Shown here piece after piece: positions 1 to 19,886 of a DNA stretch of 19,886 nucleotides. The position numbers and the translations under genes were made by a program. Each line of letters opens with the position of its first letter. Positions within the stretch are counted from its first letter, which is position 1. The notes beneath the pieces were generated by a model, which did no database searches, was not told the DNA's origin, and saw only the letters and a program-made list of their open reading frames with translations. Source of the DNA: a virus; IMG/VR virus record IMGVR_UViG_3300045988_066286; one strand, given 5' to 3'.

Positions 1-111
1 GTGGGAGGGGTGTGGGTGTGTGTGAAGATTTTCCCACGTGGTTTTTTTTATTTGTGTATTATTTTTTTTTGTTCTGTGATCTCGTTGTCACTTTGTTTTG
101 TTTACGCCTCT

Positions 112-140
112 ATTATATTTTTTTTGCGCTTGCCTGTCAA
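112..140 (-). promoter_or_regulatory. Perfect consensus sigma-A/sigma-70 promoter facing the left genome end
   Basis: The minus strand reads TTGACA (140-135), a 17-nt spacer, then TATAAT (117-112). The predicted start is near nt 105, and transcription would run off the end at nt 1. Confidence 0.6.
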
Positions 141-149
141 GTTTTTTTA

Positions 150-165
150 TTTCGGGCGTGTCGTT
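150..165. repeat. 16-nt direct repeat TTTCGGGCGTGTCGTT, copy 1 (candidate protein-binding site)
   Basis: Identical to 290-305; the match extends to 20/21 over 150-170 vs 290-310. It lies between the divergent -35 boxes at 135-140 and 174-179. The mirrored copy is at 19722-19737. Confidence 0.8.
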
Positions 166-173
166 TTTTTTTA

Positions 174-202
174 TTGACACTGTGTCAATGGTTGTATATA
201 CA
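174..202 (+). promoter_or_regulatory. Inward-facing ITR promoter (P-in), left copy
   Basis: Consensus -35 TTGACA at 174-179. The -10 candidates are TATATA (195-200, 15-nt spacer) or TATACA (197-202, 17-nt spacer). It overlaps the palindromes TTGACActgTGTCAA (174-188) and GTTGTATATACAAC (191-204). The -10 is imperfect. Confidence 0.45.
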
Positions 203-240
203 ACAATCTGTGTTTGACTAAGTTACGGTAACGTAACCGT

Positions 241-277
241 AGCTATCGGCCGTTCGGTGGCTGTCTTTTATTTTTTT
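241..277 (+). terminator. Intrinsic-terminator-like hairpin + T-tract inside ITR-L
   Basis: The stem 241-249/254-262 is 9 bp (4 GC, 2 AU, 3 G.U, so it pairs well only as + strand RNA) with loop CCGT. It is followed by GTCTTTTATTTTTTT. A 6-bp hairpin TACGGT/ACCGTA (224-241) precedes it. Confidence 0.5.
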
Positions 278-289
278 GCTTCATTTTGT

Positions 290-305
290 TTTCGGGCGTG
301 TCGTT
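290..305. repeat. 16-nt direct repeat TTTCGGGCGTGTCGTT, copy 2
   Basis: Exactly 140 bp downstream of copy 1 and just upstream of the extended -10 box at 316-324. The mirrored copy is at 19582-19597. Confidence 0.8.
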
Positions 306-315
306 GTTTTGTTTG

Positions 316-324
316 TGTTATGAT
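316..324 (+). promoter_or_regulatory. Extended -10 box TGtTATGAT upstream of the first gene (mirror copy at 19563-19571, minus strand)
   Basis: TGnTATGAT with no convincing -35. It sits about 35 nt upstream of the ATG at 358. Confidence 0.35.
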
Positions 325-357
325 GTAGTTATCAACTTCAAGGGAAAGGAAAATAAA

Positions 358-588
358 ATGAACACCGTTGTTTCGTTTGATTGGTGGCACAAGGACGTCA
401 CGGTTGCGTTCACTGATTACAATACCGCGCATTACTTCTCAATGGGCAATGCCTCAACCGTCAAGGGCGTGAAGGAGCGTATGCGTCGTGAGCTGCGTAG
501 GACGACTGGTGTGGAATTGTCTAATCTGAAGTACTGGAAAACGGACGGTTCTGTTGACTACTATCGGGCCAACCGGAAGGGAGAATGA
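358..588 (+). CDS. Early protein, paralogue family A (76 aa), unknown function
   Basis: The start was moved from the ORF-track 286 to ATG 358 because of the SD AAGGAAA 7 nt upstream. The promoter, UTR, SD and ATG all lie within the ITR. About 11/20 N-terminal identities to the next gene. Confidence 0.7.
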   Translation: MNTVVSFDWWHKDVTVAFTDYNTAHYFSMGNASTVKGVKERMRRELRRTTGVELSNLKYWKTDGSVDYYRANRKGE

Positions 589-2227: not shown

Positions 2228-2735
2228 GCGCGGTGATGACAGACGGCCTATCTACCGCATGCGTGACTTTGATGACGCCATCATGGAAAGCAAACGTATC
2301 GTCCGCGCCACAAAAGGCCATAAACGTGAGCTGAACTTGAAACGTTTCGACATGGGTTTTGGCGATTTTGAAACGTGCTGCCGTGCCGTGAACATGCTAT
2401 GCGAACTGTGGCGAGATGCGCCTAGCAAATGGTTTACGCAAGCGGTTGTCATGGTGTCGCTGATTGCGGGCAGTCTGAGCACTTGGGACGGTTTGGCGAG
2501 TGCATTGTCTCGCACGTTCGACGTGGAATATTTGGACGGTTCCATCAATCCGCCTAACCTGATTGCATGGTGTGCGGTGTGTGCGGTCAAGGGCGGCACG
2601 TCGTATGACTGTTGCGCGATTTTCGACAACCCGCAAGCCAAAAATCTCATTATCGCAGTGTTCAAAAATTTTGACAGACTGGACACAAAACGATATAATG
2701 ACAATGAATTGCAAAAAATCTTACAAGGAGAATGA
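2220..2735 (+). CDS. Hypothetical early protein (171 aa)
   Basis: GAGGAA lies 8 nt upstream. It is a long ORF in a co-directional gene array, and I recognised no domain. Confidence 0.7.
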   Translation: MFRRGDDRRPIYRMRDFDDAIMESKRIVRATKGHKRELNLKRFDMGFGDFETCCRAVNMLCELWRDAPSKWFTQAVVMVSLIAGSLSTWDGLASALSRTFDVEYLDGSINPPNLIAWCAVCAVKGGTSYDCCAIFDNPQAKNLIIAVFKNFDRLDTKRYNDNELQKILQGE

Positions 2736-4620: not shown

Positions 4621-6055
4621 AAGAGTGGGATTGTGGTGCGCGGATAACGTCATGCGCTTCACGGACGGAACCGTCCTGCGTGACATCACCGCACCTAACC
4701 GCCTGTTGGCGTTCATCATGTCGAGTGGCAAACTCACAATTTATGTGGCTGATCCAGACGTTTTAGACCCATTCATGGCTCACGTCGTGCACTCTCTCCC
4801 GCACAACGAGCATAATGCTGATTTGAGCTGGGATGCGATAGTGTCGAAAAAAGGCAAGTTCTTCGGCTTCACGGTGCGTATCGACCGTGATAATTCCGCA
4901 CGTTTCTTCGACATATCGAATCTTTTACGCGAAAACTGCCGTATCACCATGACCGACACACAATTGCTCAACATCCTGAGAGAATACGACAGCCGCGGCT
5001 TGTGCAAAATCACGGCGGGCGGTGCGAGTATGGAGGCGTTCGCGTCCGGCGAGTGGAAATGGTTTTACAACAAATTTCCCCAGCTTGAGGATGAAACTAA
5101 AAAGTCATTGCATGACGCCTATATCGGCGGTTTCATGCTAGCTAAAGAAGGGGCGTATGGCAAGGCTATCGACGTTGACTGCAATTCCATGTATCCATCC
5201 ATACTTCGAGACGAATGGCTGCCGTGGGGTGAACCGGAACCATATGACGGCAAATATGAACAAGATAATGATATGCCATTGCATTGTGACGAAATCACGT
5301 TTCGCGCGGAACTCAAACCGGACGGACTTCCTTTTCTGCTCGATAATAGAAGTGTGTACGGGCTGAATCGACTCACCTCAACACGTGGATACGTCACGCG
5401 CGTACTCACCGACATTGACCAACAATTACTCTACAAAAACTATGACGTGAGCATATACAAGCACGTAAGGGGGTGGAAATTCCGCCGCTCAAAAGGCTTC
5501 TTCCGTTCTTTTATCGACGAATGGGGGGAACTGAAACAGCGGGCGACTGGCGAGAAACGGCAAATGGCGAAACTTATTATGAATGCTCTCGTAGGTAAAA
5601 TGGCGAGCTTGCCAAAAGGCGCCGTCATGCTCCCACTCTCTAAAGACGGTGTTACCTTGGACTGGGATGTCGCGCAACGTGAAGAGTCGAATCTGAAAAC
5701 CGACTATCTTCCCGTTCCCGTGTGGGTCAACGCTTATGCCCGCCGAAAGCTTATGGACGTCTGCCGTGCGAACGCCGACAGACTGTTGTACGCAAATACG
5801 GACGGTTGTATTTTGAGTGGCTGGGAGCCGGTGGAATCATGTGACATCCATCCCACCGAATTAGGCAAGTGGAAGATCGCCGCGAAATACGACCGGCTGA
5901 CCATTCTCGGCATGAACAGGTATCAAGGATGGCGAGATGACGGTGAAGTGGACGTCTGCATGGCTGGAAACATGTTTTCCCAGTCTATCCCCTATGAGGA
6001 GTTTAGGCATGGAACGCAAGCCATGGATGATTACGGCACAATGGTTGTGCTATAA
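4604..6055 (+). CDS. Family-B, protein-primed-type DNA polymerase (483 aa)
   Basis: Motifs present: AYIGGF (YxGG), motif A DVDCNSMYPS, motif B KLIMNALVGKM, motif C YANTDG. LPWGEPEPYDGKY..PLH matches phi29 LPYGEPIVFEGKY..PLH. The start was set at ATG 4604 (GGAG 7 nt upstream) because the ORF-track start 4454 lies inside the upstream gene. Confidence 0.9.
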   Translation: MTMQNKRVGLWCADNVMRFTDGTVLRDITAPNRLLAFIMSSGKLTIYVADPDVLDPFMAHVVHSLPHNEHNADLSWDAIVSKKGKFFGFTVRIDRDNSARFFDISNLLRENCRITMTDTQLLNILREYDSRGLCKITAGGASMEAFASGEWKWFYNKFPQLEDETKKSLHDAYIGGFMLAKEGAYGKAIDVDCNSMYPSILRDEWLPWGEPEPYDGKYEQDNDMPLHCDEITFRAELKPDGLPFLLDNRSVYGLNRLTSTRGYVTRVLTDIDQQLLYKNYDVSIYKHVRGWKFRRSKGFFRSFIDEWGELKQRATGEKRQMAKLIMNALVGKMASLPKGAVMLPLSKDGVTLDWDVAQREESNLKTDYLPVPVWVNAYARRKLMDVCRANADRLLYANTDGCILSGWEPVESCDIHPTELGKWKIAAKYDRLTILGMNRYQGWRDDGEVDVCMAGNMFSQSIPYEEFRHGTQAMDDYGTMVVL

Positions 6056-6056
6056 T
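6048..6056 (+). promoter_or_regulatory. Extended -10 box TGcTATAAT overlapping the polymerase stop codon
   Basis: TG 6048-6049, TATAAT 6051-6056, weak -35. It would start transcription near 6063. Confidence 0.45.
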
Positions 6057-6062
6057 ATCCAT

Positions 6063-6232
6063 GTCTTCTTGAGCATTGATCTTCGACTGGGAGCAACATG
6101 AGTCGGACCGCTACGGCTGAGAATGCCGCCGACCATGGAGTCGCTACCGTGGCGGTAGTGCCCTACGATTTTCGACTTGATGCTCGCATAGGACAGTTAG
6201 GCCCCGCGTGATTGCGGGGCCATTTTATTTTC
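6063..6232 (+). ncRNA. Candidate structured RNA of about 170 nt, possibly a phi29-type prohead/packaging RNA (pRNA)
   Basis: It is bracketed by a promoter box (6048-6056) and an intrinsic terminator (6200-6234). The 5' and 3' portions pair: 6071-6079/6177-6185, 6083-6086/6172-6175 and 6089-6091/6161-6163. This closes a junction carrying two hairpins, 6097-6137 (with a 7-nt bulge) and 6142-6160. The alternative reading is a 37-codon ORF at 6098..6211. Confidence 0.4.
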
Positions 6233-6234
6233 TT
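6200..6234 (+). terminator. Rho-independent terminator
   Basis: The stem GGCCCCGC/GCGGGGCC (6200-6207/6214-6221) has loop GTGATT and is followed by ATTTTATTTTCTT. Confidence 0.85.
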
Positions 6235-15594: not shown

Positions 15595-16805
15595 TTGATG
15601 ATTGGATCAGGCAGACTCAAGGCCGATTCTGGGACATGGACGGGGCGTACGGTGCCCAGTGCTGGGATTTGTGGGCCAAATATTGCATGGACTTGTACGG
15701 TGCTTCGGTGTCCGATTGCATCACGCCAACCGGCTACGCCGAAGGAAACTACACAAGGTTTCCGACTAACTCTAAGATGGCTGCTATTTTTGAAAAGAAA
15801 CCAGCCGATTATATACCGGTGAAGGGGGATGTGGCGTTTTGGAATTTCTCAAGCCAACACACCGGCTCACATGTCTCCATCGTAATGGAGGATGGCGTGC
15901 ACAACGGGCGTATCACCGTGTTGTCTCAAAACCCGAACCCCGCACAGCGCATGACGTTCGACCTAACCGCATTCCTAGGCTACCTTCACCCCAAGGCACT
16001 AGGCGAAGGTGGCGGCACGACGTCCACCGAAAAGAACCCCACCGGAGACAATAGCCACGGTTCCGCCGACTCCGCGCGCGGTGGCGCGTGGATACACTGG
16101 CAAGGCGACGATCTTTATTTGCACGAAAGCGATAACGCTGGAACGCGGACTCGCATTTTCTACCGCACGACGGCTAATAATTTTTTGGAAAAGGCGTCGC
16201 AATCGCAGCCGTCCAGCGATAACGGGCAGGCGCATCCATCTGTGTCTTTGTCGGCGGAGAACTCTTATGCTCTCTATGTGGTTGGCGCTGTGGAAGCTGG
16301 GTTGCGGTGGGATGCAGTGGAAGCGGCCAACTTGCAGGGTATTGGAATTGCTCAATGGAGTTTCGAGCGCCGCCTGCAAGTGCTGAACGCCATGAAAGCC
16401 GCCGACCCAACCGGATACAATGCGTTCAGAACCGCCGCACCTGAGATCGCCGCGCTTATGGAGTCGGGTGGTACGTTTAAGCGTTCGCTCACTTCAGCGG
16501 AAGCGGCCGCGTTCCGCACGTGGGCGGCACGCAGTGAGTCGCGTGATGGTCAACGCAAGCAGTTCGCGGAAGACTACGCGAGCTACCCTAAACAGTACGA
16601 TGACGCCAGGATGCAAATTCTTTGGGTTACTGCATATCACCAGTCGCCAGCGAACGCGCTCAAAGTGCCGAAAGCATCGAACCTCACACAACTGAAAAAC
16701 AACATTCTAAGCACGTTCCCCTTCGGCCCGTACACGACACGGTATAATCAGGCATTTTCGCTTTTAAGTGTTTGGGATGGCAAGTCTAATCCGCCAGCGT
16801 TCTAA
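15582..16805 (+). CDS. Tail-associated peptidoglycan hydrolase: N-terminal CHAP + C-terminal lysozyme-like domain (407 aa), gp13 position
   Basis: CHAP catalytic motif GAQCWDLW, with the ..HVSIV.. His region. The C-terminal EAG..GIGIAQWSFERR resembles the phage tail lysozyme family. It sits between the fibre and ATPase genes. Confidence 0.8.
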   Translation: MAITFDDWIRQTQGRFWDMDGAYGAQCWDLWAKYCMDLYGASVSDCITPTGYAEGNYTRFPTNSKMAAIFEKKPADYIPVKGDVAFWNFSSQHTGSHVSIVMEDGVHNGRITVLSQNPNPAQRMTFDLTAFLGYLHPKALGEGGGTTSTEKNPTGDNSHGSADSARGGAWIHWQGDDLYLHESDNAGTRTRIFYRTTANNFLEKASQSQPSSDNGQAHPSVSLSAENSYALYVVGAVEAGLRWDAVEAANLQGIGIAQWSFERRLQVLNAMKAADPTGYNAFRTAAPEIAALMESGGTFKRSLTSAEAAAFRTWAARSESRDGQRKQFAEDYASYPKQYDDARMQILWVTAYHQSPANALKVPKASNLTQLKNNILSTFPFGPYTTRYNQAFSLLSVWDGKSNPPAF

Positions 16806-18023: not shown

Positions 18024-18389
18024 ATGAACACAGCAGACGTATGGTGCGCTATCGCAGTGACTTTCTTCATTACCACCGATTACGTCACCGGCGTGGCGAA
18101 AGCCATCATGCAGGACAATTTAAGCTCGAAAAAAATGCGTGAGGGATTAGGCCACAAGTTCGCCTATATAATCCTCACGTTGACAGCATGGTTTATCGAT
18201 GAAATTAACCTGCATGTTGACTTGGGACTTCCGATGTCCGTATTCGTTTGCACGGTTGGCGGAATTTGCTTGATTGAACTCACGTCGATTCTCGAAAATA
18301 TCACCGTGATCAATCCGGAGTTGGCGGACGCGCCATTCATGCAGATTTTCGCACAGAACAGCACCAAGCCAAGGCATAGCAACAAATGA
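18024..18389 (+). CDS. Holin (phage_holin_4_1 / TcdE-like family), 121 aa
   Basis: There are three hydrophobic segments. The D.vTG..KA motif and ELTSILENI motif are typical of this family. It lies upstream of the endolysin. Confidence 0.8.
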   Translation: MNTADVWCAIAVTFFITTDYVTGVAKAIMQDNLSSKKMREGLGHKFAYIILTLTAWFIDEINLHVDLGLPMSVFVCTVGGICLIELTSILENITVINPELADAPFMQIFAQNSTKPRHSNK

Positions 18390-18562
18390 ACAGAGTAGTA
18401 GCATTCGATATGCTCAGCATCCTAGCTATCATAGGGTGGTCAGCATATTGCCTATCGCGCCTTAAGACTGGGCAACGGTACCGTAAAGGAGCCGTCCAAC
18501 TCATGCTAGTCACCATAATACCGTGGCTCACAGCAGTACTATACCTAACTCAAACCATGTAA
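18386..18562 (+). CDS. Small 2-TM membrane protein (58 aa), possible second holin / antiholin component
   Basis: The ATGA overlap with the holin stop suggests coupling. Two hydrophobic helices are separated by RLKTGQRYRKG. This ORF is below the ORF-track cut-off. Confidence 0.5.
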   Translation: MNRVVAFDMLSILAIIGWSAYCLSRLKTGQRYRKGAVQLMLVTIIPWLTAVLYLTQTM

Positions 18563-18575
18563 AGGAGTAGGAAAA

Positions 18576-19223
18576 ATGAACATCCAAGAATGGATTAACT
18601 CAGTCAACGGCAAAACCATTGACGTAGATGAAGCGTACGGCGGACAATGTTGGGACTTATGGAGTTCCTACGCTCAATACGTCTACGGAATTCCGCGAGC
18701 CGACACGAACACCGTAGACGGATATGCAGCAAGCGTATACACTGCACGATATGACCGCTCTCGCGCATTGCAGAACGCTTTCACCAAAGAGTCAGCCAAC
18801 TATACGCCCGTCTACGGTGACGTGGCGTTTTGGAAACGCAGCGGCATGAACCATGTCGCCATCGTAGTGCGAGACAATGGCAATGGCACTCTACAGACCA
18901 TCAGCCAAAACCCCAACCGCGCCGGATACGTCAATATCGACAAAAGAGGTATCATAGGCTACTTTCACCCACGCAACAGCATCAACAATACCGACACTAC
19001 CGCACGCGCTTATCGAGTCAACGTTGACGTGCTTAACGTACGTTCGGCGCCAAGTGTTCACAGTCAGATCGTGGCACAATACCGTAAAGGACAGACAGTC
19101 AACCTCATGAGCGGCACCACCACAGCAGACGGGTACATTTGGGCGCACTACGTAGGTTGGTCAGGCAAAACCCGATATGTAGCGCTGAAAGCAGTGAACG
19201 GTACTACACAATACCTTGTATGA
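18576..19223 (+). CDS. Endolysin: N-terminal CHAP + C-terminal SH3b-type cell-wall-binding domain (215 aa)
   Basis: AAAGGAG SD. It has GGQCWDLW and ..HVAIV.. motifs. The C-terminal YRVNVDVLNVRSAPS..GYIWAHYVGWSGKTRYVA is SH3b-like. Confidence 0.88.
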   Translation: MNIQEWINSVNGKTIDVDEAYGGQCWDLWSSYAQYVYGIPRADTNTVDGYAASVYTARYDRSRALQNAFTKESANYTPVYGDVAFWKRSGMNHVAIVVRDNGNGTLQTISQNPNRAGYVNIDKRGIIGYFHPRNSINNTDTTARAYRVNVDVLNVRSAPSVHSQIVAQYRKGQTVNLMSGTTTADGYIWAHYVGWSGKTRYVALKAVNGTTQYLV

Positions 19224-19271: not shown

Positions 19272-19529
19272 TCAGTCTCCGTCATTAATCGAAACGATGT
19301 ACTCGCGGCACGGACGTCCTTCCTTTGAACGGATTTTAGCGAGCATGTTGATATCGTAGTTATCACCCAAGAAAACCTCTACGATACCCGCAAGCGCACG
19401 ACGGAACGAAAGAGTAGAATTATCTTCCAGCCCATCGATGGAAGTAAAGCCACTCCAAACTCCCTCAATAGTCACCTCGTATCGATTATCCTTCTCGAAC
19501 TCGATAACATGTGCAGTAAAGTTAATCAT
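19272..19529 (-). CDS. Right-end early protein (85 aa), unknown function
   Basis: It starts at the ITR-borne ATG (19529), with the same promoter, UTR and SD as the gene at 358, but the protein is unrelated. A faint HicB/UPF0150-like pattern (Y.V.IEG...G..S.) is not trustworthy. Confidence 0.7.
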   Translation of the reverse strand: MINFTAHVIEFEKDNRYEVTIEGVWSGFTSIDGLEDNSTLSFRRALAGIVEVFLGDNYDINMLAKIRSKEGRPCREYIVSINDGD

Positions 19530-19609
19530 TTTATTTTCCTTTCCCTTGAACTTGATAACTACATCATAACACAAACAAAACAACGACACGCCCGAAAACA
19601 AAATGAAGC

Positions 19610-19646
19610 AAAAAAATAAAAGACAGCCACCGAACGGCCGATAGCT
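19610..19646 (-). terminator. Intrinsic-terminator-like hairpin + T-tract inside ITR-R
   Basis: Mirror of 241-277. Confidence 0.5.
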
Positions 19647-19684
19647 ACGGTTACGTTACCGTAACTTAGTCAAACACAGATTGT

Positions 19685-19713
19685 TGTATATACAACCATT
19701 GACACAGTGTCAA
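19685..19713 (-). promoter_or_regulatory. Inward-facing ITR promoter (P-in), right copy
   Basis: Mirror of 174-202. Confidence 0.45.
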
Positions 19714-19746
19714 TAAAAAAAAACGACACGCCCGAAATAAAAAAAC

Positions 19747-19775
19747 TTGACAGGCAAGCGCAAAAAAAATATAAT
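19747..19775 (+). promoter_or_regulatory. Perfect consensus promoter facing the right genome end (ITR copy)
   Basis: TTGACA 19747-19752, 17-nt spacer (ggcaagcgcaaaaaaaa), TATAAT 19770-19775. The predicted start is near 19782, about 105 nt from the terminus. Confidence 0.6.
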
Positions 19776-19886
19776 AGAGGCGTAAACAAAACAAAGTGAC
19801 AACGAGATCACAGAACAAAAAAAAATAATACACAAATAAAAAAAACCACGTGGGAAAATCTTCACACACACCCACACCCCTCCCAC

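Follow-up and report, generated by a model that had tools for sequence, protein, structure and literature searches.

Why does a linear phage genome carry, in each of its terminal repeats, a perfect consensus promoter that points at the nearby DNA end? The opening of protein-primed genome ends and the activation of the first genes are, to our knowledge, understood in detail only in phi29, which employs a protein of its own, p6. We analysed such a pair of promoters in the window, by which we mean the whole stretch of 19,886 nt, the complete linear genome of a phi29-like Bifidobacterium podophage. As a promoter the feature is ordinary; its orientation, conservation and recurrence raise a concrete question on how host transcription relates to protein-primed ends.

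The nearest isolates of the window phage are the Bifidobacterium podophages BP1 (PQ571273) and BD811P1-3, and the hosts of its relatives are B. pseudocatenulatum and B. dentium. The genes annotated in these close relatives include a type-B DNA polymerase, an SSB, a portal and a phi29-type packaging ATPase, on the strength of which we consider the window phage phi29-like and presumably protein-primed. Comparison of its early proteins with PHROGs gave no candidate for the terminal protein.

The position of the physical ends follows from the BP1 record, in which an Illumina adapter directly adjoins GTGGGAGG, the homologue of window position 1; the true DNA end thus coincides with that position or lies only a few bases from it. 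The full terminal sequence is also present at both ends in many independent related contigs. At each end, 194 nt of the window are absent from the IMG/VR record of the same genome, which has 19,498 nt and therefore contains neither outward promoter. The left end of the BP1 record (1-290) seems misassembled: the true terminus is preceded by about 290 nt that are unrelated and close with the adapter …ACACTCTTTCCCTACACGACGCTCTTCCGATCT. The right ITR of the record (19316-19463) is truncated to 148 nt. The BD811P1-3 records are without the outer ITR, BD811P2 retaining only a 55-nt inverted repeat that spans the early promoter and start codon, and one IMG/VR contig starts with a Nextera adapter (1-19).

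The terminal block of the ITR (Table 1) is probably the protein-primed origin. The corresponding block of a sister clade of B. dentium type is recognisably related, with a G-rich tip, GA(G/A)ATT..CCCA and a T-run plus ATT. In the window the 5' tips are G-rich (1-24, GTGGGAGGGGTGTGGG…), and the 3' end of the RNA or DNA complementary to them contains CCUCC. One relative has 8 extra nt, GGAGGGAG, ahead of GTGGGAGG, which would fit slippage or sliding-back in protein-primed initiation.

Reading the letters directly confirmed what the preliminary description had reported, a perfect consensus promoter in each ITR directed at the terminus. The minus strand at 140-112 reads TTGACA ggcaagcgcaaaaaaaa TATAAT, with a spacer of exactly 17 nt, and the identical 29-mer occupies 19747-19775 of the plus strand. 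When the window was scanned with at most one mismatch allowed, three promoter sites came up, each without any mismatch. The expectation from 200 dinucleotide shuffles was 0.11 sites, and none of the shuffles reached three. The third site, internal and on the plus strand (2671-2699), is likewise 12/12, so the claim that the outward promoter is the best match in the whole window needs correction: it shares that rank. For an exact TTGACA, exactly 17 bp and an exact TATAAT, the chance expectation in an ITR of the same composition is about 1e-4. The same ATTATA, read on the plus strand, was ruled out as part of an inward promoter, the nearest TTGTCA lying at a distance of 20 nt.

Table 1 Positions of the terminal repeats, promoters and predicted RNAs in the window.
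Feature	Position	Strand	Remarks
Left ITR	1..361		plus strand T/G-rich: T 168, G 85, A 61, C 47
Terminal block, highly conserved	1..84		core GATTTTCCC, then T-run + ATT; recognisable in the promoter-less sister clade
Predicted non-coding run-off transcript, left	1..105	-	start near G105 inferred from the -10 position; 80% A+C
-10 hexamer TATAAT, left outward promoter	112..117	-	5 Fitch changes in 6 columns, 24 relatives
17-nt spacer, outward promoter	118..134	-	A8 tract beside the -10 (118-125) conserved; G+C-rich half (126-134) hypervariable
-35 hexamer TTGACA, left outward promoter	135..140	-	2 Fitch changes in 6 columns, 24 relatives
A/T-rich stretch upstream of the -35	141..152	-	AAATAAAAAAAC on promoter strand; conserved; UP element-like
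Motif CGGGCGTGTCG, copy 1	153..163	+	
Inward promoter-like site	174..202	+	TTGACA-17-TATACA; -35 at 174-179; overlaps perfect palindrome TTGACAC-T-GTGTCAA (174-188)
Motif CGGGCGTGTCG, copy 2	293..303	+	
Extended -10 TGtTATGAT of inward early promoter	316..324	+	serves the first gene (start codon ATG, 358); hexamer 15 nt downstream of motif copy 2
Internal 12/12 promoter	2671..2699	+	end of 171-aa gene, upstream of replication genes; positive control
pRNA-like candidate	6048..6234		own extended -10 TGcTATAAT at start; long closing helix, multibranch core; strong terminator 6200-6221
Right ITR	19526..19886		mirrors 1-361; single mismatch, position 336
Right copy of outward promoter	19747..19775	+	12/12, 17-nt spacer
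Predicted run-off transcript, right copy	19782..19886	+	mirror of 1-105

Start-site mapping in B. breve gave a vegetative consensus of TTGACA and TATAAT with an optimum spacer of 17 bp (PMC5746004). Both ITRs hold this consensus of the host genus in full. To follow it among relatives, we gathered 27 distinct related ITRs through a word of the terminal block that lies outside the promoter. Their alignment showed conserved islands exactly at the two hexamers, with 9 hypervariable, G+C-rich spacer bases between them and a hypervariable start-site region. Pairwise differences were low in the hexamers (-35, 0.03; -10, 0.07), as opposed to 0.46 in the spacer and 0.35 in the start-site region. On a neighbour-joining tree covering 24 relatives, the 12 hexamer columns required 7 parsimony (Fitch) changes, compared with about 50 expected at the rate of neighbouring spacer and start-site columns that were picked after the alignment had been seen. 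The promoter is 12/12 in 19 of the 27 ITRs and mildly altered (TTAACA, TACAAT) in 5, while in 3 the -10 is broken at normally invariant positions (TATAAC, TCTAAC, CATAAT). One genome rated complete by CheckV has the same TCTAAC in its two ITRs, and the two worst-affected relatives yielded no compensating outward promoter. A metagenome scan with a 15-mer of the terminal block returned 120 matches, nearly all of them random and only 1 a true relative; a further record, from an independent gut metagenome, has the same promoter box.

Because the hexamers are conserved amid hypervariable flanks and Bifidobacterium uses exactly the same consensus, the outward site is very probably a genuine host sigma-A promoter. 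About 60 relatives, among them members of the sister clade, keep the internal site, with every variant retaining TAnnnT; it is probably the main promoter of the replication operon. To judge from this conserved site, the phage demonstrably relies on the TTGACA-17-TATAAT consensus elsewhere in its genome.

The hexamer region could also be kept for another reason. Its AT-rich blocks may bind or bend for a p6-like protein or for the terminal protein and DNA polymerase, in which case no promoter would work in vivo and the promoter look would be largely a by-product. Conservation does exceed the hexamers, taking in the A8 tract and forming the blocks TATTATA+T8 and TGTCAAG+T7ATTT, which resemble other T-run/ATT repeats of the ITR. 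Runs of 7-9 T followed by ATT occur at 42, 62, 118, 142 and 164 (window 42-172), TATTAT+T8/9 is found twice (56-71, 110-126), and the T-runs at 118, 142 and 164 are spaced by 22-24 nt, which recalls the arrays and the 24-bp binding period of phi29 p6 (PMC4974454). Two ITRs of the promoter-less sister clade contain similar repeats, and the substitutions in the outward -10, unlike those in the internal promoter, hit critical positions. Given the longer blocks and the occurrence of this repeat family in promoter-less ITRs, part of the conservation of the hexamer region may serve an origin function at the level of DNA. That such a function accounts for the whole site appears improbable to us. Exact hexamers at 17 bp would be a rare by-product at a chance of about 1e-4, TGTCAA lies outside the T-run repeat, hypervariable bases between fixed hexamers are a classic promoter signature, and the perfect outward promoter recurs in unrelated ITRs.

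The expectation that relatives would keep the box despite divergence of their ITRs held within the clade, where the hexamers stay and the spacer drifts, and failed beyond it. The sister clade has no outward promoter above 9/12, and none of consensus type was found at the ends of BadAztec1, Voltaire, Av-1, Curie, Prophecy, Anjali, P68, C1, Mycoplasma P1 and CPS1, several of them with long ITRs; in a few close relatives the box is broken. With the promoter absent from the sister clade and other long-ITR relatives and broken without replacement in some, the comparison of these ends indicates that it is a lineage-specific accessory and no core component of the origin.

Inward promoters lie behind the outward one in a divergent, back-to-back geometry that is present in both ITR types. 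The gap between the outward and inward -35 elements measures 33 bp in the window (135-140 and 174-179) and 34 bp in BP1; BP1-type ITRs lack the entire 140-bp module inserted in the window ITR. The inward early promoters combine a poor -35 (GCGTGT or TTGTGT) with an extended -10. Located 15 nt upstream of their extended -10 boxes (TGnTATNNT) is CGG(G/C)CGTGTCG, seen at both motif copies of the window and at 18960-18990 in BP1; the sister clade has CGGGTTGTGTTG at the corresponding position, and the two sequences may represent a clade-specific -35-like or activator element. The ITR possibly holds a further small inward unit at 174-277 (mirror 19610-19713), comprising the TTGACA-17-TATACA site, the palindrome TTACGGTAACGTAACCGTA and a G+C hairpin with a T-run (239-277). 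Its predicted RNA of about 70 nt would form two hairpins (-18.9 kcal/mol).

What would the outward promoter transcribe? Downstream of it lie about 105 nt and no minus-strand ORF of at least 20 aa, in line with the preliminary description. A hidden small ORF was considered and rejected, as the region offers only a 10-codon GTG frame, which falls in the hypervariable block and has no SD. The predicted 105-nt RNA consists of A55 C29 U11 G10, with a minimum free energy of -9.4 kcal/mol. It is C/A-rich and unstructured, as had been proposed; "nearly G-free" overstated the case, the RNA being G-poor (9.5% G).

Like a pRNA gene, the outward unit lies near the genome end and is oriented towards it. 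The comparison originally drawn with the A1 promoter of phi29 proved apt to this extent, A1 being a 12/12 outward promoter near the left end (EU771092, 356-328). A1, however, drives a structured 174-nt pRNA, lies outside the ITRs (which are 6 bp long in phi29) and is found at one end only. The length and fold of a pRNA (about 120-174 nt, a 5'/3' helix, a three-way junction and ring-forming loops) were not found in the run-off RNA, which is A/C-rich and unstructured and is therefore no pRNA, as was first concluded. A search with the Rfam Phage_pRNA family gave no match at E <= 1 anywhere in the window; the test is weak for distant phages, since Cp-1 and asccphi28 also give none. The pRNA reading of the outward unit was dropped on these grounds and because a much better candidate is present at 6048-6234 (-69 kcal/mol, z = -2.9).

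With a pRNA-like candidate now at that internal position, and with A1 sharing its perfect match, orientation and location, the outward promoter might be the leftover of an ancestral end-proximal pRNA gene, a counterpart of A1 whose pRNA body has moved or been replaced. We regard this as very unlikely. A relic would be expected to decay, yet the hexamers are strongly constrained; the right end of Cp-1 has two outward plus-strand promoters, the one in its ITR and another at 18529-18558; and absence from the sister clade makes the outward promoter look like a gain.

The RNA of a real promoter might instead be a product that acts in trans, as a sponge for Rho, for an SD-binding or for an ssDNA-binding factor, or by annealing to the G/T-rich 5' end of displaced strands (panhandle or origin use). 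A/C-rich, G-poor and unstructured RNA is the composition typical of Rho-loading sites, and the predicted RNA (52% A, 28% C) matches it and ends in the CCUCC-containing sequence. Its A/C richness, on the other hand, is a mere continuation of the T/G skew of the whole ITR. The bulk of the transcribed region (17-84) is highly conserved, but this part is also kept in the promoter-less sister clade, so a DNA-level origin function explains it, and the first 20-25 nt at the 5' end of the RNA are hypervariable. In asccphi28 the ITR promoter makes a discrete terminated RNA, going by the annotated promoter and terminator; the RNAs of Cp-1, asccphi28 and the window phage, however, have no composition or structure in common. 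Taken with these points, action of the RNA in trans has a low probability in our assessment.

The roles first suggested for the promoter were opening of the origin, a sink for RNA polymerase, and production of a decoy or antisense RNA. We prefer the reading, at slightly less than an even chance, that a genuine sigma-A promoter has been selected in both ITRs and acts in cis through transcription at the genome end. Host polymerase would fire towards the near DNA end and yield a short (about 105 nt), non-coding and unstructured run-off RNA. The selected feature would be the act of transcription and not the RNA, as suggested by the lack of anything shared among the RNAs of the three phages, by the variable 5' part and by the retention of the conserved part even without a promoter.

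Two steps, both purely inferred by us, could connect transcription at the end to phage function. With the early promoters on one side and the free, protein-capped end on the other, an outward polymerase would create negative supercoils behind it and block their escape through the end. Supercoils trapped in this way would make it easier for the early promoters, which are weak and of the extended -10 type, to form open complexes. Such torsional coupling would explain the conserved back-to-back geometry, and also the perfection of the outward promoter, which itself would need no torsional help. In the second step, the polymerase would enter the terminal 85-nt origin block and run off, transiently unpairing the end for priming by the terminal protein. 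In phi29, 6 unpaired terminal nt make the origin up to 30-fold stronger (PMC4150772), and p6 is required for unwinding the ends (PMC4974454). Opening by run-off cannot be the mechanism common to all three phages, given the terminator before the end in asccphi28. The outward-promoter module would act as an accessory enhancer and not as an essential part of the origin.

A wider proposal would make outward ITR promoters a recurrently evolved cis module in the Bifidobacterium clade, Cp-1 and asccphi28, serving as a torsional barrier or generator that activates early promoters on a relaxed linear genome and as an origin opener that partly replaces unwinding of the p6 type. We put this forward as doubtful.

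Occupancy by the polymerase might matter more than its movement. In that case the promoter would be a parking site or timer, tightly bound and head-on to the forks started at the end, gating replication until it is shut off by an early protein, or else titrating or anchoring the polymerase. Very strong binding is predicted from the perfect consensus and the UP-like tract, the neighbouring TTGACA-containing palindromes are operator-like, and in phi29 the promoter C2, close to the end, is repressed by p6 when replication starts (PMC4974454). One would not expect three lineages to acquire and retain such a brake on replication independently, and in some relatives the promoter was lost without replacement. 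No regulator was identified either: the early proteins have no family matches in PHROGs, which gave nothing usable on p6-like or regulator genes among them. We consider a parking site quite improbable.

Transcription acting in cis at the genome end, the reading we prefer, is directly accessible to experiment, as the BP1 isolate has the outward promoter and grows on a culturable gut commensal. Controls already exist in nature, in the variants whose -10 is broken.

Host transcription at genome ends is also encountered in more distant systems. The linear replicons of the actinobacterium Streptomyces are capped by terminal proteins, replicate from an internal origin with patching of the ends, and have their telomere promoter in complex palindromes; the telomere repeats are reportedly bound by RNA polymerase holoenzyme and strongly active as promoters. 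Work on these telomere promoters by Lin et al. (2009, J Bacteriol 191:773) is cited in PMC4487206. These telomeres have no sequence relation to the window ITR, which belongs to a phage genome and not to a chromosome or plasmid, and no extensive palindromes of the folded Streptomyces type were found in window 1-140, where the strand folds weakly. Adenovirus resembles the window phage in its protein-primed linear genome and in an ITR that recruits host transcription machinery beside the origin, and the host transcription factors of its ITR also stimulate replication. These factors are eukaryotic (NFI, Oct-1, Sp1/ATF), in contrast to a bacterial sigma-A promoter. Bidirectional transcription of the adenovirus ITR is credited in PMC6141750 to Hatfield and Hearing (1991, Virology 184:265). 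Among phages, Glutamicibacter phage Voltaire has 179-nt ITRs with a 12/12 promoter pointing inward (34-63, 18356-18385), a polarity opposite to that of the window phage; its left copy is antisense to the first three genes.

The layout itself is not new, outward 12/12 promoters being already annotated in the ITRs of Cp-1 and asccphi28. In the Streptococcus phage Cp-1 (NC_001825; Martin, Lopez and Garcia 1996, J Virol 70:3678), GenBank annotates an outward promoter in the 236-bp ITR, mirrored at the right end, with the sequence TTGACA-16-TGaTATAAT (12/12; -35 at 177-172, -10 at 155-150) and no downstream ORF. Like the window phage, Cp-1 is a protein-primed podophage, and its outward promoter stands back-to-back with an inward early promoter, with 44 bp between the -35 elements (172-177 and 222-227). 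Cp-1 differs in its unrelated ITR sequence, its extended -10 TG and its 16-nt spacer, and its run-off RNA of about 143 nt is G/U-rich and moderately structured, whereas that of the window phage is 105 nt long, A/C-rich and unstructured. The Cp-1 record gives mapped starts for PE1-5 and PL1-9, and none for the outward ITR promoter. The further plus-strand promoter directed towards the right end of Cp-1 (18529-18558) is antisense to orfb and has no downstream ORF; the putative pRNA of Cp-1 is associated with this promoter. In Av-1, a 'packaging RNA' is annotated at 16295-16402, in an analogous antisense position.

The Lactococcus phage asccphi28 (NC_010363; Kotsonis et al. 2008) has 577-bp ITRs with an outward putative promoter P1, mirrored as P8 (TTGACA-17-TGgTATAAT, 12/12). 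As in the window phage, the region downstream of P1 is non-coding, and P1 has an inward promoter, P2, at its back, some 100 bp away (100 bp between the -35 elements at 396-401 and 502-507). The outward promoter is situated 373 nt from the end, and a putative terminator, T1 (mirror T4), precedes the terminus by 23-75 nt. The resulting RNA of about 300-340 nt would be strongly structured, the 366-nt stretch folded up to the DNA end giving -96 kcal/mol.

The window phage has in common with this pair its long ITRs, protein-primed replication genes in its relatives, an outward ITR promoter without an ORF, and an inward promoter back-to-back with it. We found no homology among the three in ITR sequence, and no agreement in spacers or in distances to the end (112, 150 and 373 nt). 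As the three ITRs are unrelated in sequence, the shared layout represents a recurrence of architecture, an analogue and not a demonstrable homologue. The outward promoter is conserved within one Bifidobacterium clade and recurs in two Firmicute phages whose ITRs are unrelated; both facts point to a connection of host transcription with the genome end, hitherto recorded only as annotation.
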